Positions 24,801 to 56,605 are shown, numbered from the stretch's first letter. The stretch is 57,326 nt of DNA from Minisyncoccota bacterium (GCA_031972685.1 DALYEI010000002.1:1-57326); one strand, 5' to 3'. The notes: generated from the sequence alone by a model not told the origin. Numbers and translations: made by a program.

Positions 24801-25417
24801 TTGTATTAAAAAATCTTGCGAAAGTTATGGCACCGTTTGCACCCTTTTCTGCAGAAGATATTTGGTTAAAACTTAGGCTGGAGAATGATAAAGAAAGCGT
24901 GCATTTGAGTGATTGGCCTAATGTCGCTGAGGATTTGCGGGACACGCCAGAGGTTGTAGAGAAAATGCAAAAAGTTCGTGATTTAGTTTCTACTGGTCTT
25001 CAAATTCGTCAAAAGAATAATCTGCCAGTGCGTCAGCCGCTTACTTCTTTCACTATAAATCTATCTGATTTAAATCAAGATTATGTAGAAATTATTAAAG
25101 ATGAATTGAATGTAAAAGAAGTTTTATCTGGTGAAGAAGTCAAGATTGATACGAATCTTACCGAAGAATTGAAACAAGAAGGAAATTATCGTGAATTTTT
25201 ACGTTCTGTGCAAGATTTGCGCAAGAAAGACGGCTTGATTCCTAGTGATATGATAACTTTATTTATTGAAACTAATGAAGAAGGTCAAACTTTGATTAAT
25301 AAATTTGAAACTGAATTTAAAAAAGTTGCTGGAATTAGTGAAATTAAATTTACTGAAAATGAAGGGGTAGAAGTAAAAGTAGGGGAATTAGTATTTAAAA
25401 TCAAAATACAAAAATAA
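21854..25417 (+). CDS. ileS: isoleucine--tRNA ligase with an inserted histidine-phosphatase-like domain
   Basis: PPTANGKPGIHH (HIGH), WTTTPWTLPGN (editing domain) and KMSKSQGN (KMSKS) motifs. About 200 extra residues lie between WGTPLPIW and DLHRPYID. Confidence 0.92.
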   Translation: MEKENQKSESALREEKVLEFWNENKIFQKSMDEREGGKEFVFYEGPPTANGKPGIHHLEARAFKDVIPRYKTMRGFHVRRKGGWDTHGLPVELQVEKKLGLNSKKAIEEYGIAKFNRECKENVWEYLEFWNNFTERIGYWVDQKNPYVTYENNYIESLWSVVKKIDDQKLIYKDYKIVPWCPRCGTTLSSHELAQGYEDVKDLSLYVKFRVVSSPDAFPQVLGSQAQPDHSEKHAGSETFILAWTTTPWTLPGNVALAVGEDIEYVEVIALDCGNKYIFAKELFNKIKEKFTSEIELVSEFKGSELIGLEYEPLFPYLENTISESEKPKLENAFKVYPADFVTTEDGTGIVHTAVMYGADDFELGNKVGLPKHHLVNLEGKFISGTDFLEGRFVKEKDGGEVNGLGKPTLDVDIIKYLQEKNLFFHKELYEHSYPHCWRCKTALIYYARDSWYIRMSSPEIKDKMIEENKSINWEPSHIREGRFGEWLSGIKDWAISRERYWGTPLPIWVAEDKEMLVVDSIAMLKNYSKKSNNKYFVMRHGQTKNNTKNLVSTKIEKGSHLTDLGKENTKISAESLKDKNIDFIISSPFTRTLETSKIITEVLGMSEDKILTDARLGEMQVLSYEGKNWDEYHKDFPKTVENFDKKKEGDESYRDVQKRVMNFLFEIEEKYKDKNILIVTHGGPAWLMSSGSEMLSVESTLEIISDKKDFHYLDNSEFLELPFFKYPHDENFILDLHRPYIDEVVLEKNGKEFIRTKEVMDVWFDSGAMPFAQDHYPFENKEFIDGAGYPADFISEAIDQTRGWFYTLHAVGTLMGRGKAYKNVICLGHLLDAKGKKMSKSQGNIVEPLSMIAKYGVDTLRLWMYSVNQPGESKNFDEKTVAILHSQVFGLLYNVLAFYELYRDRELETKELVKSKNILDTWILAKLSELVEGVTKNLDTYKVLEPTRAIRDFIGDLSTWYLRRSRERIKEGESEAKQTLYFVLKNLAKVMAPFAPFSAEDIWLKLRLENDKESVHLSDWPNVAEDLRDTPEVVEKMQKVRDLVSTGLQIRQKNNLPVRQPLTSFTINLSDLNQDYVEIIKDELNVKEVLSGEEVKIDTNLTEELKQEGNYREFLRSVQDLRKKDGLIPSDMITLFIETNEEGQTLINKFETEFKKVAGISEIKFTENEGVEVKVGELVFKIKIQK
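22496..22560 (+). repeat. GC-rich imperfect palindrome inserted in-frame in ileS
   Basis: Arms atgcttttc (22500-22508) and gaaaagcat (22547-22555), flanked by cctg/cagg. It encodes PDAFPQVLGSQAQPDHSEKHAG. Confidence 0.6.
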
Positions 25418-42956: not shown

Positions 42957-43046
42957 TTTTTTATTATAGCAATAAAATTTAAGTAAAGAAATAATAGTTT
43001 AAATTTTTAAATAGATAAAATTTCTTCGAAATGATAAAATTTATTT

Positions 43047-43502
43047 ATGGAAATATTTACTTTAGATTTAATAGGGTTATTTTTATTTATTGCTGGATTT
43101 GTAGTCGGATTAGGGGCTGTGTTGGTTATTGATATTCACGGATTTTTAGGACGCAAGTCTTCTTATTGGACTATAGCGACCACTCGCGCGCATAAAGTTA
43201 CTAAACCTTTAATTTGGATTGGTATCTTTTTAGCTATTATTGGAGGAAGTATCTTTTATAGGAATGAATCTTTTTCTGGAATTCCTTTTTGGCATAGTAT
43301 CTTTGCTTTTATTTTAATATTAAATGGTTTATTTTTATCTTTTGTAGTGAGTCCATTTTTATTGAAAAAAGAAAAAGAAGGGAAGGATGGGGAATTATTG
43401 CCTCAATCTTTGCAAAATAAAATTATCGTGAGTTTTATAATCTCAGCTTTATTTTGGTGGAGTAGCTTGTTTTTGTTAGTTGTTTATCTTTTAAATAAAT
43501 AA
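43047..43502 (+). CDS. small four-TM membrane protein, hypothetical
   Basis: Hydrophobicity pattern. TGaTAAAAT lies 6 nt upstream of the ATG. Confidence 0.5.
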   Translation: MEIFTLDLIGLFLFIAGFVVGLGAVLVIDIHGFLGRKSSYWTIATTRAHKVTKPLIWIGIFLAIIGGSIFYRNESFSGIPFWHSIFAFILILNGLFLSFVVSPFLLKKEKEGKDGELLPQSLQNKIIVSFIISALFWWSSLFLLVVYLLNK

Positions 43503-43619
43503 ATTGCGGTCTATATTGTACAAATTTTAACCTTTTTTAAACCAACAAGCAAACAAAATAGAAGCAATCTTTGGTTCTATTTTGTGGGAAGTTTAGATTA
43601 TGTCTATAACTATAAAACC

Positions 43620-43648
43620 TTGACAAATCAAGTATTTTTTGATATACT
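43620..43648 (+). promoter_or_regulatory. sigma70-type promoter
   Basis: TTGACA (43620-43625), a 17-nt spacer ending in TGa, and TATACT (43643-43648). Confidence 0.6.
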
Positions 43649-43687
43649 ATACACAGTTCTTTAAAATACATTTGATTTGTAAGGTTT

Positions 43688-43743
43688 ATTTTGAAAGTTA
43701 GCACAACTGCTAGAAATTTGGCTTGTGTGCTAACTTTCAAAAT
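43688..43743. repeat. 18-bp perfect inverted repeat with a 20-nt spacer
   Basis: attttgaaagttagcaca (43688-43705) and tgtgctaactttcaaaat (43726-43743). It lies between the promoter and the lipoprotein start, with no U-tract. Confidence 0.8.
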
Positions 43744-43767
43744 CAATTCACTTATAAAATCAAATAA

Positions 43768-44250
43768 ATGACAAAAATAATTTTAACATTCGCAACAGCC
43801 TTAATGGCTTTATGTTTGATGAGTTGTTCAAACTCAGAAAACCAATCTTCAAAACTTGAATCCCATTCTTCCGATGTACATGGTGTGCGTGATACTAATT
43901 ATGATTCCCAAAACAAAACTGCGGAGTGTGGTTGCCAAGATTTAAAAATTCTTGTTGGGGGTATGATCTATAATAAAGAATTAGTAAAGCTTGAAAACAA
44001 GAAATTGCTTCCAGAAGAAGTTTGGGCTATGGAGATAATGGATACTTATGTTTACACGGCAGATTGCGAAAAAATGGCCGGGCAGGGACTTTATTCAGGT
44101 GATTCGTGTGTGGTGCGTTTATGCATCAATAGTAAAACTGATTACAAAATCAGAATTATGAAAAACACAACATCTTCTGATAATACTGAAAAATCCTTTA
44201 AATACTGTAAGGATTTTAAATCAAATCTTTTCTGCTATCGTAGTCGCTAG
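43768..44250 (+). CDS. Cys-rich lipoprotein, hypothetical
   Basis: Signal peptide with lipobox LMSC (ALMALCLMSCSNS). Confidence 0.6.
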   Translation: MTKIILTFATALMALCLMSCSNSENQSSKLESHSSDVHGVRDTNYDSQNKTAECGCQDLKILVGGMIYNKELVKLENKKLLPEEVWAMEIMDTYVYTADCEKMAGQGLYSGDSCVVRLCINSKTDYKIRIMKNTTSSDNTEKSFKYCKDFKSNLFCYRSR

Positions 44251-44269
44251 TGTTTAATTAGGAATTATT

Positions 44270-44306
44270 ATACGCCTTCAGTTGACATTGGAGGCGTATT
44301 TTTTTA
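44270..44306 (+). terminator. intrinsic terminator
   Basis: Stem atacgcct/aggcgtat with a 14-nt loop and T7. Confidence 0.6.
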
Positions 44307-44323
44307 CGCTCCACCAAAAAAGA

Positions 44324-44347
44324 AAAGCGGAAGTCCGCTTTTTTTTT
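44324..44347. terminator. second hairpin terminator, A-run / T-run flanked
   Basis: aaagcgg aagt ccgcttt followed by T9 and preceded by an A-run. Confidence 0.55.
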
Positions 44348-44483
44348 GCGGTGTACTCGGGTATGGTACCCGTGGGTTCAACCCTTGTAAGGCTATTCTA
44401 GCATGTTCTGACTGATGAAGTTTAGCTTTGTGGGTCGCAAGCTCAAATGCCAACAAATGCCAATTTTTGATATAATACAAACT

Positions 44484-45185
44484 ATGACCGTAGGCGAATT
44501 AGTGTATCAACAAGCAATAAAGGATGGATATGACCCTGCTACAGCAGAAAGGCTTGTTTCGCCGTTGAAGGCTGTTTTTGAGGCACATGAGAAGACACTC
44601 AAGGCTTTTGAACCAATGAGAGAATCATTGAAAAAAAGCATTGGGATGGCTAATTCCGCATTTGAATCTGTAAGACCATCGTTGGATGTTTTGGCTGGAT
44701 TCTCATTCCCAACAATAGATAAAGATGATTATATTATTCCTGCAAGAATGGTTCAGGAAGTTAGAATTGTTAACCCTGAAGATTTAGATGTTGGATCAGC
44801 TAAAAAAGAAAGTAGCGTTGTTGTTGCATCATACTTACTTCCCAAAAATGCTACATGGGAAGCATTGGATATAAAGTTTTTGGATGGACACCTTGTTAAG
44901 GTTTCTTACCCAAATATGAAACCGCAAAAGTTTGATTACAAAGATATGGGTTTTATGAATACTAAGACAAACAACCCAGATTATAAATGGGCACTACTTT
45001 TGGTAATGGCAGAATACGGTGGTTCGTTAACTAAATCAGAATGGGATAGAAGATTTGGCAGAAATGTTAAATATGAACTCAATGAAGGCTTGAAGAAGTT
45101 TTTTGGTATGAAGTCCAGCCCAATATCTCACTACACTAAAAGATATGGGTACAAAGCACTATTTTCTCTTAGAGCTGACAAATAG
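44484..45185 (+). CDS. hypothetical protein
   Basis: ORF with no family recognised. The start was set at MTVGEL, 7 nt downstream of TGaTATAAT (44468-44476), rather than the track start at 44415. Confidence 0.5.
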   Translation: MTVGELVYQQAIKDGYDPATAERLVSPLKAVFEAHEKTLKAFEPMRESLKKSIGMANSAFESVRPSLDVLAGFSFPTIDKDDYIIPARMVQEVRIVNPEDLDVGSAKKESSVVVASYLLPKNATWEALDIKFLDGHLVKVSYPNMKPQKFDYKDMGFMNTKTNNPDYKWALLLVMAEYGGSLTKSEWDRRFGRNVKYELNEGLKKFFGMKSSPISHYTKRYGYKALFSLRADK

Positions 45186-45206
45186 TCATTTCATATAAAA
45201 TGACGA

Positions 45207-45246
45207 AACAAAGACCTTTTGCTTGAACGAGCAAAAGGTCTTTGTT
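45207..45246 (+). terminator. 17-bp hairpin, probable terminator
   Basis: aacaaagaccttttgct / agcaaaaggtctttgtt with a 6-nt loop. The U-tract is weak. Confidence 0.5.
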
Positions 45247-45361
45247 ATTAAGGATTTCCTTACTACTCATTTTTGGGAAATAAAAAGAAATTGTCATTTT
45301 GTCATTCAATGACGAATAAGGGTAGAAGAGCAGCTAAGAACCTCTTCTGAAGAAAAACTCT

Positions 45362-46630
45362 ATGGCTAAGCAAAAGCGTACATGGTCTAGCACTACTCGC
45401 AAGTTGGTAGACCTAATTAATAACGGATACAATCCGAGAAAGTTGAGTGAGAGCGAAAAGAGAGACTTGGAAAATTCTGTTAAGGAATTTGGAACGGTCG
45501 TGCCTATTGTTCTTAATATCGGCTCAAGAGCCAATATTGTTATTGGTGGTGAGCAAAGAGTAAAAGTGTATATCGATCTCGGCATAGAAGAGATTGAGTG
45601 CATGATACCCTCGAAAGAGTTAACACTTGAAGAAGAAAAGGAACTCAACCTGCGACTCAACAAAAATACTGGTTCATGGAATGAAGAACTCTTGAAAGAG
45701 TTCGATATGGACATGCTTCTTGATGTGGGTTTTGGAGATGAAGAATTACAGAATCTATTTGATGACGTGGATCTTGTTGAAGATGATTTTGATGTTGAAA
45801 AAGCTATTAAAGAAACAGTGACACCAAAAGTGAAGTTAGGAGAAGTTTGGGAACTCGGGAAGCATCGCCTTTTAGTTGGAGATTCCACTGATGAGAATAT
45901 GGTAAAGGAACTCATGCAAGATGACATGGCAGATATTGTCTTTTGTGACCCACCCTATAATATTTTTTGGATATACGGAGGAAAGTATGGTGGAGAATAC
46001 AAAGATAATAAAAGCGAAGAGGAATACTCTGAATTTATTAGTAAAAGTATCGAAACGGCTAAAAAGTTTGCTAAACCAGACTCACACTTCTTTTATTGGT
46101 CAGACCCAAATAGCATAGGATTAACTCAATCTCTATACGATAAATACCAAATCAAGAAAAGAAGAGTGTGTCTTTGGGTAAAATCGAATCAGAACTGTAC
46201 TCCGAAAGTTGCTTGGAACAGACTCTATGAGCCATGCACATACGGCACACTTGGTAAGCCATATTTAAATCCCAACTTCAGAAATGCCAATGAAATTCTT
46301 AATCAAGAAGTAACAACTGGTAATCAGGTTCTGGATGAATTGCAGGACATGATAGACCTTTGGCTTGTTAAAAGAGATAACACTCAAAGCTATTTACATC
46401 CGACGCAGAAACCGATTTCTTTAAATGAAAAACCTTTCAAACGATGCTCTGCACCTGGGCATATCATCTTTTCTGGCTTCGCTGGAAGCGGATCTGATTT
46501 GATTGCATCTGAAGAATTAAATCGTGTGTGGCGTGGGGTCGAAAAAGATTTACTCTTCGCGACGATCATCATAGATCGTTGGGAAAAATTTACTAATCTT
46601 AAGGCGAAGAAAATCTATGAAAATAAATAA
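45362..46630 (+). CDS. ParB-like nuclease domain fused to a beta-class N4/N6 DNA methyltransferase
   Basis: N-terminus has GYNPRKLSE and GGEQRV (ParB/Srx-like). It is followed by FCDPPYN (motif IV), HPTQKPISL and FAGSGS (motif I) in the permuted beta-class order. Confidence 0.8.
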   Translation: MAKQKRTWSSTTRKLVDLINNGYNPRKLSESEKRDLENSVKEFGTVVPIVLNIGSRANIVIGGEQRVKVYIDLGIEEIECMIPSKELTLEEEKELNLRLNKNTGSWNEELLKEFDMDMLLDVGFGDEELQNLFDDVDLVEDDFDVEKAIKETVTPKVKLGEVWELGKHRLLVGDSTDENMVKELMQDDMADIVFCDPPYNIFWIYGGKYGGEYKDNKSEEEYSEFISKSIETAKKFAKPDSHFFYWSDPNSIGLTQSLYDKYQIKKRRVCLWVKSNQNCTPKVAWNRLYEPCTYGTLGKPYLNPNFRNANEILNQEVTTGNQVLDELQDMIDLWLVKRDNTQSYLHPTQKPISLNEKPFKRCSAPGHIIFSGFAGSGSDLIASEELNRVWRGVEKDLLFATIIIDRWEKFTNLKAKKIYENK

Positions 46631-47366
46631 AGGAGATATTTTTAGAGTCGGAAATCACATTATTGGATGTGGCGATTCTCTAGATAAAGAATTTGTCGCA
46701 AAAGTTATAGGTAGCAATAAAATACGAGCAGTCGTGACTGATCCTCCTTATGGTGTTGCCTACGTAGAAAATAAAATAGGACTCTCAAAGCTCGGTGTTA
46801 ATAATGAAAAAATTATCGCCAATGACCATCTGCAATCAGAAGAAGAATACGAAAATTTCACTCGCAAATATTTAGGTGCGACTATTCCGTATCTTGAAGA
46901 ATACAATGCGGTCTATATTTTCAATGCCGACTTAATGTTTCCAAGTTTACGCTTGGGAATGAAGTCTGCTGGTTTTTATTACAGTCAGATGATTATTTGG
47001 CTGAAAAATCAACCAGTCATGAGTAGAAAAGACTATCTGTCTATGTATGAACTCATTGCCTATGGATGGTTTGGTAAACACAAAATGGAACAGTCTAAGG
47101 CAAGAAATGTTATCTATCATCCTAGACCACATAAATCTAATCTCCACCCTACGCAAAAACCAATAGGGCTATTGAGAAAAATAATTCCTAACTCAACGAG
47201 AGTTGGTGACGTTGTATACGATCCATTTTTAGGAAGTGGATCAACGGCTGTCGCTTGTGCACACTTAGGTCGAAAGTGTATCGGCATAGAGCTTGATGAG
47301 GCGTATGTGCAAACATCTCTCACAAGGCTTGAAAAGCTCACTGGCGAGACAGCAGTAAAGCTTTAA
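46617..47366 (+). CDS. beta-class N4/N6 DNA methyltransferase
   Basis: VTDPPYG, HPTQKPIGLL and DPFLGSGST motifs. The start overlaps the upstream gene by 14 nt. Confidence 0.85.
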   Translation: MKINKGDIFRVGNHIIGCGDSLDKEFVAKVIGSNKIRAVVTDPPYGVAYVENKIGLSKLGVNNEKIIANDHLQSEEEYENFTRKYLGATIPYLEEYNAVYIFNADLMFPSLRLGMKSAGFYYSQMIIWLKNQPVMSRKDYLSMYELIAYGWFGKHKMEQSKARNVIYHPRPHKSNLHPTQKPIGLLRKIIPNSTRVGDVVYDPFLGSGSTAVACAHLGRKCIGIELDEAYVQTSLTRLEKLTGETAVKL

Positions 47367-47373
47367 GTGATAT

Positions 47374-47748
47374 ATGCAGGAAGAAGATTTTTCTAAAGAT
47401 CCATATAAAAAGCAGGTCTACGAAACCTATGCTCTTTGGAAGTCCCTTCCTTCGTTTCTTAAAGGGCAACCAAGAGTAGCACTCGAAAAGTTCGGTGTTG
47501 AAGAAGAGTCAGTATTTGAATTGCTTGCGATAAAGACACAGCTTGAATTCTCAAAAATATACAAAATTGATACTGGCACGCTCACTGATTGGAATAAGAG
47601 ACTTGAGAAAGATGGACTAGTCAAAGACATCAACTCATGGGCAAGAAAGCTAACTCCGAATGTTATTTTTGCACTCTATAAAAATATCATTAAAAGTGGC
47701 AAGGCTCATGAAGTAAGAGCTTGGTTTGAAATCGTAGAAAATAACTAG
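47374..47748 (+). CDS. phage-type HTH protein (terminase-small-subunit-like), tentative
   Basis: The segment KTQLEFSKIYKIDTGTLTDWNKRLEKDG looks like an HTH. Resemblance to phage small-terminase/phBC6A51-type HTH proteins is from memory only. Confidence 0.35.
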   Translation: MQEEDFSKDPYKKQVYETYALWKSLPSFLKGQPRVALEKFGVEEESVFELLAIKTQLEFSKIYKIDTGTLTDWNKRLEKDGLVKDINSWARKLTPNVIFALYKNIIKSGKAHEVRAWFEIVENN

Positions 47749-47749
47749 T

Positions 47750-47947
47750 ATGACTAAACCAATTAACCTAGAAGAAATAAATAATATTCTTTCGGATACT
47801 ATCCGCAAAGTGATGAACAAGGAAATGTCACTCAAGCAGGCATCTATGATTGCCAAGCTTACTTCTACGCTTTCAAAGAATATAGCCAACACAGAACTTA
47901 AAGAACGGGTCGAGTTCTTGGAAAACGCATTAAGAAAAAACAGATGA
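47750..47947 (+). CDS. hypothetical small protein
   Basis: ORF packed 1 nt after the upstream stop and ending 1 nt before the next start. Confidence 0.35.
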   Translation: MTKPINLEEINNILSDTIRKVMNKEMSLKQASMIAKLTSTLSKNIANTELKERVEFLENALRKNR

Positions 47948-47948
47948 T

Positions 47949-49430
47949 ATGAAAAACTTAAGTGATTTACTTAGAAGATCAAATATCACACCGCTTGAGC
48001 GAGTGACTGCACTGGTGCATAACGATATTTACAGAGAAAAGAATGGCAAAGGTGCACTATCTGATTCTGATATCTATGTTTTGACTCAAGCATGGAGTCC
48101 TCGTACCCTCGAAGTAAAGGAATACAACCGATACATAAAGATTGTTCAACTAGAGAATTCTATGAAAATGGATGCTCAGATGTTTTTATATCGGTCAGAG
48201 CTATCACTGTTACGAAACCAGAGAGTGCTTGATAGTTTTCTTTCTGGTACAAGAAGCTTTCAGGGGGTAGCAATGCAACAATTCACAAAAGATATTCCAG
48301 AGGAAGAAAGTATCAAACTGCTTACAGAATCTACTTATTTTGAGTATCAAAAACTGTTACACATATTTACGTTTAATAACCTACCAAAAGAAACACAAGA
48401 AGACTTACTTCTCCTCGACGACACGGTTGCTAGTGATTCCAAATACTTGGAAGACCAGATCTTTCTCTATGAACGATTCAAGGATAGCACCAAACTCAGT
48501 AAGGAGGAGAAAGACTTGATTGTCAGTCGTATCTATTCCTGTATGTACTATGAGGGAGCGAAGAAAATAAGAAATACCATGGCGGAAAAAGGAGGGTTTT
48601 TACTCCATCACTTTTTTGCTGAGCTACCAATAAAAGATGTATTTTTAAAATTAGCTTACGATGCACATATTTCACACGATGCTACCGAAGAAAACATATT
48701 GTCGATGGTGGAAGAATATGCAAAAAATAAAAACATGAGTATTGAGTTGTTGGTCAAAGAAACTCTATCTCGTTGGTTAGATGATGGCTTATTCGTAAAT
48801 GAATATTCACCACTTAGTATGAGTGAGCGTTTTGACACATGGAATGGTAATACCAAAAAGAGTCACAAGGATTTGTTCATGGCTTGGTATACAGAACTGC
48901 AAAAGTCCAAAAAGTATTTTCAAAAGCTATTTGATACCGGCAAGTTGGTAAAACAAAATCTTGAAAAAGATTTCTTGGGAATGCCGAGAGTGGTAGAGAT
49001 AATAACTGGGACTAATTTATATACCTGTAAAGAAGAGGTTAATTTTGTGCAGGAGTATAAAGAACAGATTGAAATACTTTTACCGCTTGCAAATATGTTT
49101 CTTTTTACAAAGAAGCACGCAAGTCCAGTTAAGAGCTATAAGACACTCTGCGAATTTAAAAATCTGGCTCAAAAACCATCGACTATATTTGATATTGATA
49201 TGACCGAGAAGTATAGTGAGTTTTTTGAACTATACAAAGAAGAAGTTGATCTACTAAATCATAGTCTTAGTAAACTAATAGATACCGCAATAGAGCATCT
49301 ATACACCGAGAAATCATTGCTCTATGTTCTCGATATTATCGAGGCTAACTTTACATTTAATCTTGATGCCGACGACAGCGTAGCTGAAATAACAGAATTA
49401 TATTCTGCTGAGTTTAAAAAACTATTGTAA
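47949..49430 (+). CDS. hypothetical protein (493 aa), no family recognised
   Basis: Long ORF that looks helical. No NTPase or nuclease motif recognised. Confidence 0.5.
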   Translation: MKNLSDLLRRSNITPLERVTALVHNDIYREKNGKGALSDSDIYVLTQAWSPRTLEVKEYNRYIKIVQLENSMKMDAQMFLYRSELSLLRNQRVLDSFLSGTRSFQGVAMQQFTKDIPEEESIKLLTESTYFEYQKLLHIFTFNNLPKETQEDLLLLDDTVASDSKYLEDQIFLYERFKDSTKLSKEEKDLIVSRIYSCMYYEGAKKIRNTMAEKGGFLLHHFFAELPIKDVFLKLAYDAHISHDATEENILSMVEEYAKNKNMSIELLVKETLSRWLDDGLFVNEYSPLSMSERFDTWNGNTKKSHKDLFMAWYTELQKSKKYFQKLFDTGKLVKQNLEKDFLGMPRVVEIITGTNLYTCKEEVNFVQEYKEQIEILLPLANMFLFTKKHASPVKSYKTLCEFKNLAQKPSTIFDIDMTEKYSEFFELYKEEVDLLNHSLSKLIDTAIEHLYTEKSLLYVLDIIEANFTFNLDADDSVAEITELYSAEFKKLL

Positions 49431-49442
49431 TTTCAGAATCAA

Positions 49443-49904
49443 TTAGTGATTATCCCTCAACTCGTCGAGCTTCTTCTTGACCTCATACGGATGAGCTATG
49501 TGGCTCAGGACGATTTCTTCTTTACTTGTTCCTGCGGTGTTAATAAATAACTGCCCGCTTTTTGTGAATGTCTTGTCTAAAAATGATTCACGGACGGTAA
49601 CATCAGTGATCTGCTTGTAGTCAACGCTGACTAAGTTTGTTGAGAAAAATCCACGATGGATCAATACTCGCTTGTCGGTAAATCCGTATATGTTTGCCTT
49701 AGGCAAGTAAAACTTCAGATACAAGAATGCGATGAGGAATATGAAAATTCCTACGACGGCAAACACGAACGGCAAACTGATGATCGCCCAGATGATAATG
49801 TATGTATTAATATACTGCTTTCCGACTGAGAACTCGTACTTAACTTCTTCATGTGCACTGAGGACTTTGCCCCAAACTTCTTCACTATGTGATTTTTTAT
49901 CCAT
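49443..49904 (-). CDS. membrane protein with bacterial PH domain (bPH_2 / YdbS-like)
   Basis: Two TM helices (IIIWAIISLPFVFAVVGIFIFLIAFLYL) followed by FTDKRVLIHRGFFSTNLVSVDYKQITDVTV, typical of bPH_2. Confidence 0.7.
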   Translation of the reverse strand: MDKKSHSEEVWGKVLSAHEEVKYEFSVGKQYINTYIIIWAIISLPFVFAVVGIFIFLIAFLYLKFYLPKANIYGFTDKRVLIHRGFFSTNLVSVDYKQITDVTVRESFLDKTFTKSGQLFINTAGTSKEEIVLSHIAHPYEVKKKLDELRDNH

Positions 49905-50110
49905 AAAACTTTGGACGGTTTAATTATTATGGTGGCTGTTTAGGTAGCAAAAAGCTCCTAGCCAGATCCGATATACCCCGTGAGGTATACCCATACCCGT
50001 TTCCAGATATGACCGTCCAAAGTAGACTCTGACTAGGAGTTCTTTACTTTGGACGGATTTGGCGACCATATCCTCAATAAATTGAGGGGTTAGGTCTGTT
50101 ATTAAATTGT
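49905..50110 (-). promoter_or_regulatory. about 200-nt structured leader / candidate cis-regulatory RNA upstream of the bPH gene
   Basis: 12-bp perfect hairpin (50013-50024 / 50045-50056). Its loop (50029-50039) can pair over 11 bp with 49955-49965. Closing helix 49928-49936 / 50062-50070. A third copy of ACTTTGGACGG lies at 49908-49918, next to the start codon. Confidence 0.45.
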
Positions 50111-50116
50111 AAACGA

Positions 50117-50125
50117 ATTATACCA
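50117..50125 (-). promoter_or_regulatory. extended -10 element TGgTATAAT on the minus strand
   Basis: Plus-strand attatacca is the reverse complement of TGGTATAAT. No terminator is visible between the DUF2779 stop and this element. Confidence 0.45.
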
Positions 50126-50189
50126 TTTTCAAGGGTATTTTTGTACTTTAGCTTAGATCGAGTTTATTGTGTAGTGAAGTTACCAACAG

Positions 50190-51689
50190 CTAGATTTTTT
50201 CATAAAGATGCTTCCAAATTGCGTACATAGCATAAGTATCTAGACCACAATAAATTTTAAGATTTTTAGAAATATCCTCAAGTTCTTCCTTGCTTGTGCC
50301 TGGTGCGACCATGAACCACCACTGTTCCGAGGCTTGACCACCCTCATGGATAACTAAGTCACCATAGTTTAAGTCAGGGATCAAGGCTGGCAATACTTTT
50401 TTGATTGAGGCACTTCCTTGAAAATCTGGATGGACATAATACTGCTTTGAAAAAATATCCTTCAGATCATACATTTGATTATTTATACGCTCCATCGCTT
50501 CTCGATGTTCAGGAAGACGCTCTGCGATATCAGAATTGACTCCTTTCTCAAATGACTTATTCCACGAAATAACTGTACCTTTTGGTTCGATATGCTTAGT
50601 TAAAAGTTGCGCGACCAATTCTGAAGGATCGGTACGTTTAGGATGAAGAAAATCAACATGCTCAACTTCGCCATTTGGTTCACGTAAAATGTGAAGTGAA
50701 AATTGAAACGGTATCCGTTTATAAGGACTATAATTAACGAACTGCGGAATCGCTGGAGCATACGTTTCGTAATCCAAGAAATATAGAGGAAATTCCAAGC
50801 CACTAAGTTGAGTTCTAATCTCACTCAAATCAATAGTTGGGGCCTTGGTTCTATGAGCTTGTAGTTGGTTGGTCTGAATGGGAGATAGCTCATAATCGGT
50901 AGGGATATCATCAAGATTGTAGATACTATTGTCGACAAAAAATTCCATTTTCTTTTTACTGCTTCCAATACGTGAAAGATCATGGACTGAATATTCTGGT
51001 ACTTCGGGATGGGAGTACTGAAACGTAGCGCAATGTCTGCTTCGCCCTAGGTAATGACAATCACAACCACTCGCAGGTTCTGTTTCTTGATTAAGGAACT
51101 CACGTGAGCCTTCCATTAAAATACTCATTTCATCGAATCTTTGAGCCACGGTTTCAGTAAGATCTTCAATTGTAAATAATTGACGAATATCAAGATCGCT
51201 AGTTCGTACGTATTCTTTATTCAAATGAATTAAAAACGAACGTCCCAGATTCACGCCCGCACGCTTTAAGACTATTGCTTGAAATGTGAGATCTTCAACA
51301 TGGCTTCTCTCGTCTGAACCCTCTTTAAGAGAATTTGTTCCTTTGATTTCGTAAAGATCCCAGCAATCATTTTCGGGTTCATAAACCAAAACGTCATTTC
51401 GAGCAATAAAGCCATCAACAATAAATGTAGCTTGAAAAATGGCAGGGGTTTTTGCCTCCATTAACTTTCTTGTTTCAAGACATGCATTTTCACCTTTACT
51501 TATAACTTCAACGCCATCAGGAAAAAGACCGCGAGCACACAACTCTACTTCGTTACCTTGTTCGATAAGTTGCTTTTCAAATTCGGAAAGTTCGAAATTC
51601 TCCAGAAGCTCAGGTTTGTGTAGTTTCAGCCAAGTATTTTTAGCACAGTTACGTGAGTCGATAAATATTGTTTTTGATATAAGAGGCAT
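50190..51689 (-). CDS. DUF2779-type protein: Cas4-like PD-(D/E)xK nuclease plus DEDD-like exonuclease
   Basis: N-terminal half has Cys at RNCAKN, D...ExK (ARNDVLVY ... DLYEIKG) and the Cys cluster CDCHYLGRSRHC. C-terminal half has FLDYETYAP (DxE) and CGLDTYAMYAIW. Confidence 0.7.
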   Translation of the reverse strand: MPLISKTIFIDSRNCAKNTWLKLHKPELLENFELSEFEKQLIEQGNEVELCARGLFPDGVEVISKGENACLETRKLMEAKTPAIFQATFIVDGFIARNDVLVYEPENDCWDLYEIKGTNSLKEGSDERSHVEDLTFQAIVLKRAGVNLGRSFLIHLNKEYVRTSDLDIRQLFTIEDLTETVAQRFDEMSILMEGSREFLNQETEPASGCDCHYLGRSRHCATFQYSHPEVPEYSVHDLSRIGSSKKKMEFFVDNSIYNLDDIPTDYELSPIQTNQLQAHRTKAPTIDLSEIRTQLSGLEFPLYFLDYETYAPAIPQFVNYSPYKRIPFQFSLHILREPNGEVEHVDFLHPKRTDPSELVAQLLTKHIEPKGTVISWNKSFEKGVNSDIAERLPEHREAMERINNQMYDLKDIFSKQYYVHPDFQGSASIKKVLPALIPDLNYGDLVIHEGGQASEQWWFMVAPGTSKEELEDISKNLKIYCGLDTYAMYAIWKHLYEKI

Positions 51690-51703
51690 ATTCTCTGAGA
51701 GGT

Positions 51704-54700
51704 TTATGAGATTGTTTTAATAATATCCTCGATTATTGCTTCTTTGTGTGAAATCCAATGTTGAGACCAAACACGATATATATCCCAACCAAGTCTTCTA
51801 AGAATATCTTCTCTCAAACGATCGTTTACACGAGCAGAGTATGAAGAGTGATACGATGCACCATCACACTCGATTCCAAGAATATAGTCAGTTCCAGTCT
51901 TAGGATTTATGATTGCCAAGTCGATTTTAAAACCTGATACACCAATTTGTTTTCTAACTTCGTACCCACGTTCCTCAAGTGCTCGTTTAACCTCCAGTTC
52001 AAATGGACTATCAGCTTCAACGTCCTCTCCTGCAACAACAAGACGGCTACCGTCGAGAGTCTTAACCCCATTTTCAGCATAATCTAAATATTTCTGTAAC
52101 ATTTTTGCACCTCGTGAAGTTTCTCCGGCTTTCATCTCGGTCGATTTAAAAGAAGATACGCAAATCAATTTTTCTTTCGCACGAGTTACTGCTACGTTCA
52201 AACGTCTGTAGCCAGTGACGCTATTGATAGGACCAAAACGATTAAAGAAGTTACCATTTTTATCTTTACCATACCCAATAGAGAGTACGATAATGTCGCG
52301 CTCATCTCCTTGTACAGATTCAAGATTCTTAATGAAGAACGCATCGCTACCGTCTTGATCTTCGTTTAATTTTTCCTGAAGTTCAGGATGTGTTTTAAGA
52401 AACTCGATCATCGCGTCTCTGATACCCACTTCTTGAGATTTACTGAATGCGATCACACCAATGGACTTGTCTGGATAGTCGGTCGCAGACTGAGCACACA
52501 TTTCAACGACGCGTTTTGCTTCGATATCGTTACGACGTGTTCCCGCATGACCTTCCTTTTTGATTCCGCCATCGAATATACCGTCCTCAACATACTCAAA
52601 CTGAACCCCGCGACTTGAATGATCTGGATTGGGGAAAGTAATAAGGCGATCCTTGTAGACTTCACAGTTTGAGAACGCAATAAGATCTTCATACTTACTG
52701 CGGTAGTGATATAAGAGAGAATCGCTTGATTCAGGAAGAACGGTTCGTGCGGCATGAAGAATGCTTTCATAATCTTGTTCTTCGACCTCTTCAGAATCGT
52801 CATCTGAATCTGAGGCTACGTCAAAGAAAGATGTTGGGGGAAGCTGGTGTTCATCACCGAAAATAATGACTTGTTTTCCCCGAGCAATTGCACCCAGAGC
52901 GTGTTCAACACGCATCTGTGATGCTTCATCGAAAATAACCGTGTCAAAATCAAGTGAGCCATATGGAATATATGAACTCAATGTCAAAGGACTCATCATC
53001 CAGCAAGGCTTGTATTGCTGGATATGAGAAGTACATTTCATAACAACCTGTCGAACGGGTTTGTGTTGCTTCTGGAGTTGGCTTTGGTGAAGCAAAAAGC
53101 GTTCAAGCTCGCCACGACGCTCTTTTACTTTTTTAATCTCAGGAGCAATTCTTTGGAGTATTCGTTTCGCATTAACATCAAGTACACGCTTCTCAAGCTT
53201 GCGGAACTCCTCGATAGTTTTCTTGTGTTCACTTACATTAAAATCTCGTAGATCAGGATCGCTACGATAATAATTTTCAAGCCACGAATTCCAAAGTGAT
53301 TCAGCAAACAAAGCTGCTGGATTTTTTATATCGCTACCCTTAACTGATTCCAAGAACCAAGAGTAACCTAGATCTTTCATCTGGTGCGAATAACGACGAT
53401 ATTCCATCCATGCTTCAAGGCCTTCTTGGTCTTGGATCATTCCCGATAACTTTTCCTGAAATGCCTCAATTTTTAGAGGTTCAAGAATTGCTAAGCTTTG
53501 TTCATTCTCAAACAGCTTATTTAAAGCCGAAGCGTGCTTTTCGTAATTTGTAAGTGCTGACTTCCATTTATCAAGTTTTGCTTTTGCTTCTGTGGTTAAT
53601 TGTATCGAATCACTGAGTGAAATATCACTTTGATAATTAGACAATTTTGATATATGCCAGAGCAGATCCTCAAGTTCAAGCATATTCTTCTCTAAGGACT
53701 TACGTTTATCTATAAGTGAGGCGGGGTTTTCCTCTTCTGTGAATAAGCTGAAAATATCTGGATCAATCTTATCTAAACATACCTTGAGTTGGTTAAGATT
53801 CTGGACATCTTTCTTGAGAGAACCAAAAGTTCGAGAAGAATCATTCTTTATTAAGAAATTTTCCACAATCTCTTCGAGAGAAATTATGTTCTGAGCATTC
53901 TCTGTCAGCTCTCCAAGTTTAGAAGCAACATTTGCAATTGAGACACGATCAAGATCAGAAAATACACTGAATATGCTCCAAGGACCACTGAGTACTGCCT
54001 CCAAATCTTTTAATGAATCGCTAAAAGCTTTCGTTGCACGAGGACTACTGTTTTTCTCGACAACCTGCTTTAGATGGCTAGGGAGTTCGCTCTTATTTTC
54101 TTGACGCATCCATTCGCTGAGATTCTTTGCGCTACCTGAAAGAATTGGAATTTCGTGTACCGTTATTGATTTACCTGAAACAATGTACTTCTCGTTAAAT
54201 TGAGCAAGAAGAATACCTAATTTTTCTTCAAGGTTTTGGCTGTCGCGTACAGCAGAAACAACTTGATTAATATCTACATACTTTTTCGGTGTATTTAGGT
54301 TGCACCAATCTGAAACTATCGCTTTAGTTGCCCTATAATCACGGGAGAAAAAATGTAGGTATTTATGATACCTCTTATTAAATTCAGTAAATACTTTTTC
54401 GACATCTTCTCTATTTAAGTTTTCACGAATAATTGCCCATTTTTCAAATACCGCATTTGCTTCTTCAAGTTTACGATAAATGGCTTGTAATGTTGTAAGT
54501 GATCCAAGAGAAGCCTGTAATGATGATGCTTCGCTCCAATCCTTTATTCCAATAATAAGTGGATCGAGAATTAAAATATTTCGATAATGAATTAATTCAG
54601 CAATAGGTAAATTCAAGAGATCGTCGTTCTTGCAAGCCTCTACATTTGAATATAAGGAAGACAGGATCGCTTCAATTTTAGATGCAGCATCGAGTGCAGT

Positions 54701-56605
54701 GCGAATCTCTTTAATTTCACGCTCGTCATTTACGGACTGGACATCTAGCTTACTCAAAGACCATAAAGTAGGCACTTTATAGATATCCCCGAAACTCTCG
54801 GTAAGTTTTTGATAGGCAGAAATAACTTCAACCGTTTGTTTTAAAATCTGAATTCCAGCATTAAGAATGACTTCATCTCGTAGTGGTATTGGTAATAAGC
54901 TAGTTTCAAACTGTGCCAATTTTTCAACAGTCTCCATATTCTTTTGCAGACTTTGAATTGTATCCAAGCCTATTGATTCGGGTTGTAGAGAATTAAGTTC
55001 GGCAATCGCAGAATGAGCATCCTCAAGTACGACTCGAACTCTACTCGCGAAGTCAGGAGAGAAATTTTCTTTTTGTATTTGACTCCATGCTGAAAATTTG
55101 GAATCAGAAATCTTGTGGAGGACTGGAGAAACAGCTTCCAAAATCGTAAGAATTTTCCGATACGTGTCTTCAGTAATAACTAATGGATTACTTTCTCCCC
55201 ATGGTATTGCCCGATCAGAGTTAAGTGCTTGTGCTCTAGCAAGCTCTCCGTGAACCCATTGAACTGATCGCTTGAGTGGTTCAACAACAGTAGCCAGTGA
55301 ACATGCGTAATTCCATAGTTTTGTATGGACACCTTCACGCAATTCAAGAGCCGTATCATCACTAGAGCTACTATGTCCATAGGCTTCGATCAGAAAGTCT
55401 CTATCGTTTATAACAGATTTCGCGAATGTTTTTTTATCAGCGTTCTGATAAAAAAGTGGCAGACAAAGCTTGTCGAGTCCTTTATCTTTGAGACGTTTAA
55501 AAACAACTTCAAGGGCAACCTGTTTTTCACAGACAACGAGTACTTTTTTGCCACGAGCAAGTAAGTTAGAAACAAGGTTAACGATGGTCTGACTTTTTCC
55601 TGTTCCAGGAGGACCTTGAACAACAAGACTGTTACCTTGAACAGCTTTCTGAATAACTCGCATCTGGCTTACATCGGCATCTAGAACAGTGAAGTCTTCT
55701 TCAACAGCCAAAAGATCATCGGGTTGTGAGTCTGACGGTAAACCTTCTTGAATGATAGAACCTTTGCCGATAAGACCATCAACAAATTCATGTTCACAAA
55801 TTGCTTCTTCATTATTTCTTAGGTCTTCGTATATTTGTTGACCATAAAAAGAGTACTGACCGATACGAATATCGTCAGTGATATCATTTTTAATTTTAGA
55901 TTCTGCAAATGATTTTTTTAATATTTTGACAAGGGAGTCGAATGTTCCAGAGAGACTGGTGATTTCTTCAAGTGAGGGTATCCCAGAAATCTGAACCCCG
56001 TATTCCAATTCAGAGAGTAAAAGTAGTACAGGATTAACAACAATATCATTCGCTTCTAAATACGTTCTGATTATTGTTTTCTTTGGCGTAGATTTTGTTT
56101 CTTCAACTGAAACAGGAATAAGAAGAAGTGGGGCATCGTAGTCATAGTCTTTTTCTTCTAGTGCTCCTTCTGAGCCACGACCATTTCCTGGTTCTTTCCA
56201 ACGTACACGACCAATCGTGAGGTATAGGGTATGGAGTCCATGTTCTTCAAATTTCTTTTTACTATCAAGCCTCAAAGCTTGAAGCATTGTTATAAGCTTT
56301 TTACCTTGAACGTCTGTAGGCGGAATAGATGAATCCTTTTCAGCATCCTCTACCACTTCTTCCTCTTCGCGAAGAATTGCTTTATGCGGAAACTCAATCT
56401 CTATTTCTTCAGCAGAACCGAAACTCTCTTCAAAATCAGAGATGTTCATTTTAAAAGAAATAGCCCGAGCTTTTGCGGGGTATTTCAAGAGACGGTTTCG
56501 TCGAGTAAGATCAACAATCTTTTTTTCGTACTCTCTCAAAACTTTTATATTTGGATTCAAAACTTCGGCAGAAGTTTCATTTGGACGGTTTTTTACTGTA
56601 GTCAT
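51704..56605 (-). CDS. DUF4011-type SF1 (Upf1-like) helicase with C-terminal Vsr/DUF559-like endonuclease
   Basis: N-terminal LTRRNRLLKY; helicase motifs GPPGTGKSQT, VIFDEASQM, GDEHQLPP, QGDERDIIVLS and LNVAVTRAKEKL. The C-terminus IDLAII...GIECDGASYHSS...RLREDILRRLGWDIYRVWS is typical of Vsr-like / DUF559 nucleases. Confidence 0.85.
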   Translation of the reverse strand: MTTVKNRPNETSAEVLNPNIKVLREYEKKIVDLTRRNRLLKYPAKARAISFKMNISDFEESFGSAEEIEIEFPHKAILREEEEVVEDAEKDSSIPPTDVQGKKLITMLQALRLDSKKKFEEHGLHTLYLTIGRVRWKEPGNGRGSEGALEEKDYDYDAPLLLIPVSVEETKSTPKKTIIRTYLEANDIVVNPVLLLLSELEYGVQISGIPSLEEITSLSGTFDSLVKILKKSFAESKIKNDITDDIRIGQYSFYGQQIYEDLRNNEEAICEHEFVDGLIGKGSIIQEGLPSDSQPDDLLAVEEDFTVLDADVSQMRVIQKAVQGNSLVVQGPPGTGKSQTIVNLVSNLLARGKKVLVVCEKQVALEVVFKRLKDKGLDKLCLPLFYQNADKKTFAKSVINDRDFLIEAYGHSSSSDDTALELREGVHTKLWNYACSLATVVEPLKRSVQWVHGELARAQALNSDRAIPWGESNPLVITEDTYRKILTILEAVSPVLHKISDSKFSAWSQIQKENFSPDFASRVRVVLEDAHSAIAELNSLQPESIGLDTIQSLQKNMETVEKLAQFETSLLPIPLRDEVILNAGIQILKQTVEVISAYQKLTESFGDIYKVPTLWSLSKLDVQSVNDEREIKEIRTALDAASKIEAILSSLYSNVEACKNDDLLNLPIAELIHYRNILILDPLIIGIKDWSEASSLQASLGSLTTLQAIYRKLEEANAVFEKWAIIRENLNREDVEKVFTEFNKRYHKYLHFFSRDYRATKAIVSDWCNLNTPKKYVDINQVVSAVRDSQNLEEKLGILLAQFNEKYIVSGKSITVHEIPILSGSAKNLSEWMRQENKSELPSHLKQVVEKNSSPRATKAFSDSLKDLEAVLSGPWSIFSVFSDLDRVSIANVASKLGELTENAQNIISLEEIVENFLIKNDSSRTFGSLKKDVQNLNQLKVCLDKIDPDIFSLFTEEENPASLIDKRKSLEKNMLELEDLLWHISKLSNYQSDISLSDSIQLTTEAKAKLDKWKSALTNYEKHASALNKLFENEQSLAILEPLKIEAFQEKLSGMIQDQEGLEAWMEYRRYSHQMKDLGYSWFLESVKGSDIKNPAALFAESLWNSWLENYYRSDPDLRDFNVSEHKKTIEEFRKLEKRVLDVNAKRILQRIAPEIKKVKERRGELERFLLHQSQLQKQHKPVRQVVMKCTSHIQQYKPCWMMSPLTLSSYIPYGSLDFDTVIFDEASQMRVEHALGAIARGKQVIIFGDEHQLPPTSFFDVASDSDDDSEEVEEQDYESILHAARTVLPESSDSLLYHYRSKYEDLIAFSNCEVYKDRLITFPNPDHSSRGVQFEYVEDGIFDGGIKKEGHAGTRRNDIEAKRVVEMCAQSATDYPDKSIGVIAFSKSQEVGIRDAMIEFLKTHPELQEKLNEDQDGSDAFFIKNLESVQGDERDIIVLSIGYGKDKNGNFFNRFGPINSVTGYRRLNVAVTRAKEKLICVSSFKSTEMKAGETSRGAKMLQKYLDYAENGVKTLDGSRLVVAGEDVEADSPFELEVKRALEERGYEVRKQIGVSGFKIDLAIINPKTGTDYILGIECDGASYHSSYSARVNDRLREDILRRLGWDIYRVWSQHWISHKEAIIEDIIKTIS

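Follow-up and report, generated by a model that had tools for sequence, protein, structure and literature searches.

Many structured RNAs are orphans for which metagenomes are the only source, and LOOT RNA is one of them. Rfam holds it as RF03000, a "metagenomic-based" family of type "Gene; sRNA" that comes from the Weinberg/Breaker ZWD collection (PMC7779021), and R-scape later served to refine its consensus structure (PMC11701678). The main text of the 2017 discovery paper does not discuss it, and no literature on its function was found: its mentions are those of the Rfam papers and of a CaCoFold note on many "cross-covariations." What could such an RNA be doing in front of a gene? This article describes a LOOT RNA in a window from a Minisyncoccota bacterium (the window being the whole stretch of DNA analysed, 57,326 nucleotides long), and uses its relatives to propose how it might act on the gene that follows.

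The Rfam scan that a sequence-only reading of the same DNA had suggested gives a single match across the window. It is to RF03000 and lies exactly on the leader of a gene for a bPH membrane protein (49970–50096, minus strand; 81.2 bits against a gathering score of 46.4; E = 8.8e-14; model positions 1–121 of 121), so that the RNA scores above the family threshold over the whole model. The hallmark hairpins of LOOT, namely P1 with its CCUAA/(C/U)AUGG internal loop, the long P2, P3 with its GAAA loop, and P4, are all recovered in the Rfam alignment, in the MFE fold and in the helix checks. ARAGORN finds no tRNA or tmRNA in the whole window. The leader is thus a further copy of a catalogued orphan family and not an unrecognised RNA; the earlier statement that it fell into no known riboswitch class holds as far as riboswitches are concerned, but the RNA had already been catalogued as LOOT. 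It shares with the family the four hairpins, CCUAA/AUGG in P1 and the GAAA loop on P3. It differs in that the Rfam model ends at P4, whereas the functional unit here runs about 65 nt further, through a pseudoknot partner, a U-run and a copy of a P2 arm at the start codon (Table 1). Moreover, Rfam types LOOT as an sRNA, whereas the RNA of the window appears to behave like a 5′ leader.

Table 1. The LOOT leader of the window and the gene behind it, in the order of the minus-strand RNA.
Feature	Position	Strand	Basis
Extended −10-like box, TGGTATAAT	50117–50125	−	Sequence
Conserved 5′ flank, ACAAUUUAAUA, consensus ACAAYUKAAUA	50100–50110	−	Flanks of verified LOOTs
LOOT P1: outer 4-bp helix, internal loop CCUAAC/UAUGG, inner 6-bp hairpin	50064–50096	−	Rfam alignment, MFE fold
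X, 5′ arm of P2, CCGUCCAAAGUA	50045–50056	−	Rfam alignment, helix check, MFE fold
Y, 5′ strand of the pseudoknot, in the apical region of P2, CUCCUAGUCAGA	50028–50039	−	Covariation
X′, 3′ arm of P2, UACUUUGGACGG	50013–50024	−	Strand common to both alternative helices
LOOT P3: 8-bp hairpin, GAAA tetraloop	49992–50011	−	Rfam alignment, MFE fold
LOOT P4: 9-bp hairpin; the Rfam model ends at 49970	49970–49991	−	Rfam alignment, MFE fold
Y′, 3′ strand of the pseudoknot, outside the Rfam model, UCUGGCUAGGAG	49955–49966	−	Own-locus pairing, covariation
UUUUUG, conserved U-run plus G, directly 3′ of Y′	49948–49953	−	Conservation
Copy of X, 3 nt before the ATG, CCGUCCAAAGU	49908–49918	−	Repeats in relatives
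bPH gene, 153-aa membrane protein, ATG 49904–49902	49443–49904	−	Pfam bPH_2, E = 2.7e-09

With a folding energy of −72.7 kcal/mol (z = −5.95), the 226-nt leader (50110–49885) is more stable than every one of 200 shuffles. Its most prominent hairpin, already noticed in the sequence, is the outer stem of LOOT P2, in which X and X′ (CCGUCCAAAGUA with UACUUUGGACGG) form 12 perfect base pairs; over the loci the P2 arms are perfectly complementary yet hypervariable, with 82 distinct sequences. A second hairpin, read at first as 6 bp long, is real and corresponds to LOOT P4, but it has 9 bp (49991–49970). P1 (50096–50064) and P3 (50011–49992) were absent from the elements listed at that time. The closing helix that had been drawn between 50070–50062 and 49936–49928 makes 8 of its 9 pairs in the window and overlaps the 3′ strand of P1; it is rejected here, because its best run in 50 relatives is no longer than with shuffled partners. 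The internal loop of P1, CCUAAC/UAUGG, agrees at 10 of 11 positions with the classical 11-nt receptor of GAAA tetraloops (CCUAAG...UAUGG). On the strength of this textbook likeness, the GAAA loop of P3 may dock into the receptor-like loop of P1, which would compact the fold and favour the X:X′ pairing.

Relatives were gathered independently of the gene, by means of a pattern drawn from conserved positions (it fixes CCUAA, AUGG, GGUC, GAAA, and GGG). In the GTDB species genomes the pattern finds at least 119 loci. A helix filter for P1, P2, and P3 is passed by 119 of the 136 matches listed, and 116 loci were analysed. The matches that fail the filter include the only isolate genome and those named Anaerolineales, Acidobacteriota, and Terriglobia. 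The valid loci listed carry overwhelmingly Patescibacteria/CPR names (Saccharibacteria, Paceibacterota, Nomura-, Adler-, Morani-, Gottesman-, Doudna-, and Lloydbacteria), and about a dozen come from MAGs otherwise named. Scanning IMG/VR with the pattern gives 11 loci, 8 of which are LOOT above the Rfam cut-off. Eight IMG/VR contigs classed as viral hold bona fide LOOT RNAs (L007–L009, L012, L013, and L015–L017); these may be misclassified fragments of CPR chromosomes, or else CPR phages or prophages.

On the evidence of covariation, the pseudoknot formed by Y and Y′ is a feature of the LOOT family. In the window it has 12 bp including one U.G pair, which becomes A.C if the other strand is read. 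When the apical loop of each locus is matched with the sequence that follows its own P4, an ungapped helix of at least 9 bp is found in 113 of the 116 loci, with a mode at 11–12 bp, against a mode of 6–7 bp when foreign apical loops are set against the Y′ region. A covariance model in which the pseudoknot is written as nested pairs was used to align 90 loci (the alignments behind the pair counts given in this article were fitted to the structures under test). In this alignment 11 of the 12 pairs are changed on both sides and 95.3% of the cells are paired, on a par with P3 (96.7% of cells; 7 of 8 pairs changed on both sides) and P4 (98.5% of cells), while sliding the partners by 1–3 columns leaves at most 46% paired. 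G.U pairs make up 19.8% of all pseudoknot pairs, and the U.G pair of the window (50032 with 49962) is kept in 82 of the 90 sequences, which supports the earlier opinion that the minus strand is the functional one. The pairing between loop and flank had also been correctly seen, and it covaries, but its length is 12 bp (50039–50028 with 49966–49955) rather than 11. An apical hairpin of 4–6 bp (3–4 bp in shuffles) can form in P2 as well; since its 5′ strand is also the 5′ strand of the pseudoknot, the two are mutually exclusive.

The UUUUUG that follows Y′ is conserved at 88–98% per position in the 90 sequences, and the 8 nt behind Y′ most often contain 5–6 Ts, against a background mode of 2. 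By its sequence this U-run resembles the tail of a terminator, and could mark the end of LOOT as a separate RNA, or an attenuator. In many loci it is not a free tail, because it pairs with an A-run 5′ of Y and so extends the pseudoknot to 16–19 bp.

The third copy of the repeat reported in the window, CCGUCCAAAGU at 49918–49908, is indeed present 3 nt before the ATG at 49904, and it has counterparts elsewhere. When the P2 5′ arm of each locus is sought in the 450 nt downstream, 22 perfect copies and 19 copies with one mismatch are found, that is in 41 of 111 loci; as controls, searching upstream gives 2 of 119 and searching with the arms of other loci 9 of 2053, each below 2%. All 41 copies lie 40–100 nt after P3 with an A-rich run in front, and 40 of them are followed by an ATG within 0–6 nt. 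They represent 19 different arm sequences. In a further seven loci the copy has two mismatches, both at its distal end, and the copy mismatches are clustered toward the AUG-proximal end. In two loci (L118 and L095) where X contributes a U.G wobble to P2, the copy carries a C instead, making it the perfect complement of X′.

This alternative helix was then given a covariance model of its own, with X′ and the copy as nested pairs, which 52 of 100 loci matched. Nine of its 11 pairs are changed on both sides and 95.4% of the cells are paired, against at most 44% with slid partners. Under a nested-energy model that leaves out the pseudoknot and the tertiary contacts, the median difference between the folds forced to contain X:X′ or X′:copy is +0.7 kcal/mol (the window has +0.5), and in 16 of 42 loci the MFE structure is the alternative one. 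On this point the comparison with relatives largely favours the sequence-only reading, both the pseudoknot and the alternative helix showing compensatory changes in relatives. The arrangement of X, X′, and a copy at the ATG recurs and covaries in about 40–50% of LOOT loci, and a mutually exclusive fold gating the translation start, as had been suggested, has the expected layout, with a covarying X′:copy helix and nearly isoenergetic folds. Mutually exclusive structures, which characterise a riboswitch platform, are present in that 40–50% of loci only. About half of the LOOT loci lack a start-codon copy, so that the switch is the feature of a subfamily and not the core function of LOOT. For the copy-less loci a relay was considered, in which the pseudoknot would free a C/U-rich strand that masks the start; it was dropped because the predicted accessibility of the start is the same with and without the pseudoknot (0.49 vs. 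0.50), and these loci give no consistent link between the state of the pseudoknot and the accessibility of the start site. Nor does the use of Shine-Dalgarno (SD) sequences clearly split the copy and no-copy classes, both of which occur in low-SD genomes (median 0.00 vs. 0.12).

The reading that we prefer, with a probability of roughly 60%, is that LOOT is a cis-acting 5′ leader (about 206 nt long in the bPH mRNA) with a translational strand-exchange switch. X′ would have two equally good partners, either X or the copy that lies 3 nt before the AUG. Once X:X′ is formed, together with the LOOT fold and the pseudoknot, the A/U-rich start region would be single-stranded and translatable; if X′ pairs with the copy, an 11–12 bp helix would abut the AUG and block initiation. 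We infer that the first fold is the ON state and the second the OFF state. A helix at the AUG should weigh heavily where unstructured start regions take the place of SD sequences. Anything that stabilises the compact LOOT fold, be it a ligand, an ion, a protein or the kinetics of co-transcriptional folding, would in this way turn on the gene.

How the leader is transcribed bears directly on this proposal. The TGgTATAAT noticed in the sequence (TGGTATAAT) is present at 50125–50117 on the minus strand, and its placement agrees with a positional peak over the LOOT loci. Within the 70 nt upstream, 100 of 115 loci have a −10-like box that matches in 5 of 6 positions or more; 42 of the boxes carry TGn, and their positions peak 20–24 nt before P1 (28 loci vs. 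about 7 per bin); the TATAAT of the window ends 20 nt before P1. In the window and in L001, L008, L012, and L013 the conserved 5′ flank begins 6–9 nt after the box. Judged from the sequence, this flank (ACAAUUUAAUA) is the probable 5′ end of the transcript, and the transcription start is predicted near 50110. In 94 loci the region from +150 to +450 is covered by a gene that runs in the same direction as LOOT; in 6 this gene runs the other way, and 5 loci have no gene there. The strands of the upstream genes, by contrast, are split 54 to 45, so that LOOT appears to head a transcription unit. The start codon comes a median of 44.5 nt after Y′. A strong −10 box 4–11 nt before the ATG is found in none of 78 LOOT-downstream genes, against 90 of 558 (16%) of the other long ORFs in the same loci, so that the downstream genes appear to depend on the LOOT promoter. 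From this we infer that LOOT lies in the 5′-UTR and is co-transcribed with the gene.

The bPH gene has neither an SD-like motif nor a −10 box directly upstream. SD-like motifs are rare in the window genome, preceding 3 of 50 genes, and in many genes a TATAAT-like box ends 6–8 nt before the ATG (e.g., 1129, 13991(−), 14613, 28929, 32855, and 42213(−)), which points to widespread leaderless mRNAs in this genome of 33% GC. Two other candidates were rejected: a second promoter within the leader (TTGCTA-16-AATAAT) is not conserved in relatives, its 4 scan matches corresponding to a shuffle expectation of 3.2, and a uORF that would start at a conserved UUG behind GGAG differs in length and frame among L001, L008, L012, and L013.

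A separate conserved module is found upstream of the LOOT promoter in about 36 of the 116 loci: GTTGGTAAC ... CTTCGCAA/CTACACAA ... CTAAGCTAAGGTAC. In the window it occupies 50142–50190 and 50120–50137 on the minus strand, and it occurs also in L001, L008, L012, L013, L076, L077, L108, and others. Next comes a hairpin that varies and covaries in sequence and has the −10 box in its 3′ arm (arms ATACC/GGTAT in the window, GATAGC/GCTATC and GTAGCA/TGCTAC elsewhere). The homology between the window and L001 starts exactly at GCTGTTGGTAAC. The module has no Rfam match; it might serve as an operator, might terminate transcription arriving from upstream, or might be another RNA.

The orientation and promoter counts weigh against an alternative that we regard as unlikely, in which LOOT would be an independent trans-acting sRNA ending at the U-run and the start-codon copy would be its mRNA target site, cis-proximal or in trans. 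Rfam's "Gene; sRNA" type would agree with this, as would the GC-rich helix strand followed by a highly conserved U-run in nearly all loci and the presence of the same arm alleles before different genes in different genomes. But downstream genes are 94% co-oriented with LOOT while upstream genes are about evenly split, the start codon is near, and none of 78 downstream genes has a promoter of its own. The supposed seed, X′, is moreover buried in a perfect 12-bp stem, 73 of 92 loci have no canonical local terminator hairpin, and two LOOTs from one MAG (L075 and L112) have different arms.

Terminators matter again for a somewhat less probable alternative, according to which LOOT would mainly control transcription: Y′ and the U-run would form a conditional terminator, or an anti-terminator against a short local hairpin, and the copy would be a secondary add-on. 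No intrinsic terminator was detected in the leader of the window, and a canonical hairpin with a T-run between P3 and the start codon is found in 19 of 92 loci, about 2-fold over shuffles. These local hairpins are confined to one subgroup, with Y′ = GGCGGCGGG, where an alternative hairpin of 5–6 bp can form with the P4 3′ arm or the linker just before the U-run; the subgroup itself fits transcriptional control, as do the conservation of the U-run in all classes, copy-less loci included, and the mutual exclusion of apical hairpin and pseudoknot. Against this, it would be unorthodox for a terminator stem to enclose P3 and P4 while crossing P2, and the U-run is paired with the A-run 5′ of Y in many loci, as part of a pseudoknot of 16–19 bp.

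The translational switch that we favour must also be set against the genes that carry it. The leader had been described as that of the bPH gene, but the relatives show that it is not specific to this gene: 93 downstream proteins fall into 44 Pfam families, none of them in more than 3 loci, including DUF4352, DNA methylases, nucleases, proteases, zinc ribbons, DndB, HSDR_N, and HNH. An N-terminal hydrophobic segment is present in 53 of 94 downstream proteins. bPH homologues with 70% and 61% identity carry LOOT (88.9 and 72.6 bits), but a 74%-identical homologue does not and has instead a TACAAT 7 nt before its ATG. A coherent function of the downstream genes that would point to a ligand, as riboswitches have, is not found. 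To call the leader of the window a riboswitch would be premature, as the gene context implies no ligand and about half of the loci lack the copy. Because the gene set is so heterogeneous, a pathway metabolite is disfavoured as the trigger of the proposed switch; the candidates left would be a global signal, an ion, a protein, or control by kinetics alone.

An identical bPH protein is encoded on six public contigs. One of these (L002) shares the context of the window; in two others, L001 and L004, the gene upstream is another one and the leader allele diverges. X, X′, and the copy read CCGUCCAAAGU / ACUUUGGACGG / CCGUCCAAAGU in the window and CCGCUAAAGU / ACUUUAGCGG / CCGCUAAAGU in L001, so that all three change together between the two alleles, and the loop-to-flank pairing has two compensatory changes. 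Elsewhere, a single MAG (isolate SRP285395_co1_532; contigs L075 and L112) holds at least two LOOTs with the P2 arms CCCATGGAAGA and CCACTTGCATA, and the arm alleles CCCGCTAGAG, CCGTCCAAAGTA, and CCGCTAAAGTG recur before unrelated genes in many MAGs. Different arms within one genome, and arm alleles recurring before unrelated genes, hint at a modular exchange of whole leaders.

Such heterogeneity would also suit a constitutive structural 5′-UTR module, stabilising the mRNA or promoting its translation for instance, in which nothing switches and the copy tunes basal expression. The downstream genes are very diverse and often accessory, membrane or defence genes, whole leader alleles are swapped between identical genes, a close bPH homologue does without LOOT, and structural motifs largely account for the conserved nucleotides. 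We consider this reading doubtful all the same, because nearly isoenergetic folds are kept over 19 arm alleles, which is hard to explain without selection for switching. Finally, it is barely credible that X′ and the copy are DNA inverted repeats of an invertible, phase-variable segment (they are 11-bp inverted repeats about 95 bp apart, and three Logan contigs end within the leader), or that a 49-aa ORF at 49920–50069 is a real small gene, since the enclosed P3, P4, and pseudoknot covary as a one-strand RNA with many G.U pairs, the contig breaks fall at the end of P4 and away from the repeats, no recombinase is consistently linked, and the ORF, cut to 5 codons in L001, is not conserved.

The surroundings of the leader deserve a short description. 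The window is a housekeeping chromosome segment with 33% GC, and the bPH homologues are named Minisyncoccota or Patescibacteria, which points to a patescibacterium as the source. The unit made of LOOT and the bPH gene lies within an accessory or defence-like island (43000–56605 in the window; also in L001, L137, and L139), which contains ParB-fused and stand-alone N6/N4 DNA methyltransferases, a DUF2779 protein and a 1633-aa fusion of DUF4011, an SF1 helicase and an MTES_1575 nuclease. The gene upstream of LOOT varies among otherwise near-identical contigs, and in L138 a divergent gene for a large serine recombinase (1310–2626, minus strand) lies upstream of the LOOT-bPH unit. The Logan contigs L003, L005, and L006, from three samples, end at the same base, at about 49969 in the window, which is the 3′ end of P4 and lies 66 nt upstream of the ATG; this suggests that the populations sampled hold several LOOT alleles with the same downstream sequence, or that a repeat breaks the assembly. 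Elsewhere in the window (21854–25417, plus strand) is encoded a 1187-aa class I aminoacyl-tRNA synthetase, IleRS-like (tRNA-synt_1, Anticodon_1), with a His_Phos_1 histidine-phosphatase domain inserted in the catalytic domain (residues 537–691).

The strand-exchange leader can be extended, tentatively, to a wider scheme. LOOT might be the sensor of a riboswitch-like regulator found throughout Patescibacteria, acting on accessory, membrane and defence genes in response to a global signal (a second messenger, an ion or a protein) through interchangeable platforms, with the exchange of a hypervariable, locus-specific "address" arm gating the start codon in largely leaderless lineages without SD sequences; we see this as possible rather than probable. 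More speculatively, the alternative fold, a 12-bp closing helix round three hairpins that ends 0–6 nt before the AUG, might be a processing substrate, cleavage of which would yield a leaderless mRNA.

Whatever its trigger, LOOT can now be assigned to a lineage, the Patescibacteria/CPR, whose genomes are tiny and where almost no RNA regulation has been characterised. The comparison further gives the family a probable place in 5′ leaders, a pseudoknot conserved outside the model so far catalogued and, in nearly half of the cases, a covarying, putatively bistable start-codon switch. An entry of "function unknown" thereby gains a concrete mechanism that is open to testing, for which the 19 arm sequences form a natural allele series, equivalent to ready-made compensatory mutants. 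The proposal is also relevant to the regulation of translation where SD pairing is not used.

Among known systems, the c-di-GMP-I riboswitch (GEMM-I) has adjacent hairpins joined by a GNRA tetraloop-receptor contact and controls diverse genes, including those for pilins and for membrane and secreted proteins. LOOT would resemble it by the putative tetraloop-receptor contact between its hairpins and resembles it by its very diverse downstream genes, but there is no Rfam match to GEMM here, and the LOOT architecture is a different one, with a pseudoknot added to four hairpins; the likeness can do no more than guide the choice of candidate ligands. The M-box Mg2+ riboswitch offers a parallel of another kind, since in the model proposed for LOOT, too, tertiary compaction would decide whether a strand is available for the alternative helix; the two are unlike in that they have no homology in sequence or structure, and the genes downstream of LOOT are not Mg2+ transporters. 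Parallels in mechanism are also found among riboswitches with strand exchange. The add adenine riboswitch has a translational expression platform that works by strand exchange, and the SAM-II and preQ1 classes form pseudoknots. In these as in the proposed LOOT switch, one strand has two exclusive partners, one of which hides the translation start, and a pseudoknot belongs to the folded sensor state. Unlike them, LOOT would hide the region next to the AUG instead of an SD sequence, and it would swap a full arm of 11–12 bp, hypervariable from one locus to the next, in front of a heterogeneous set of genes.
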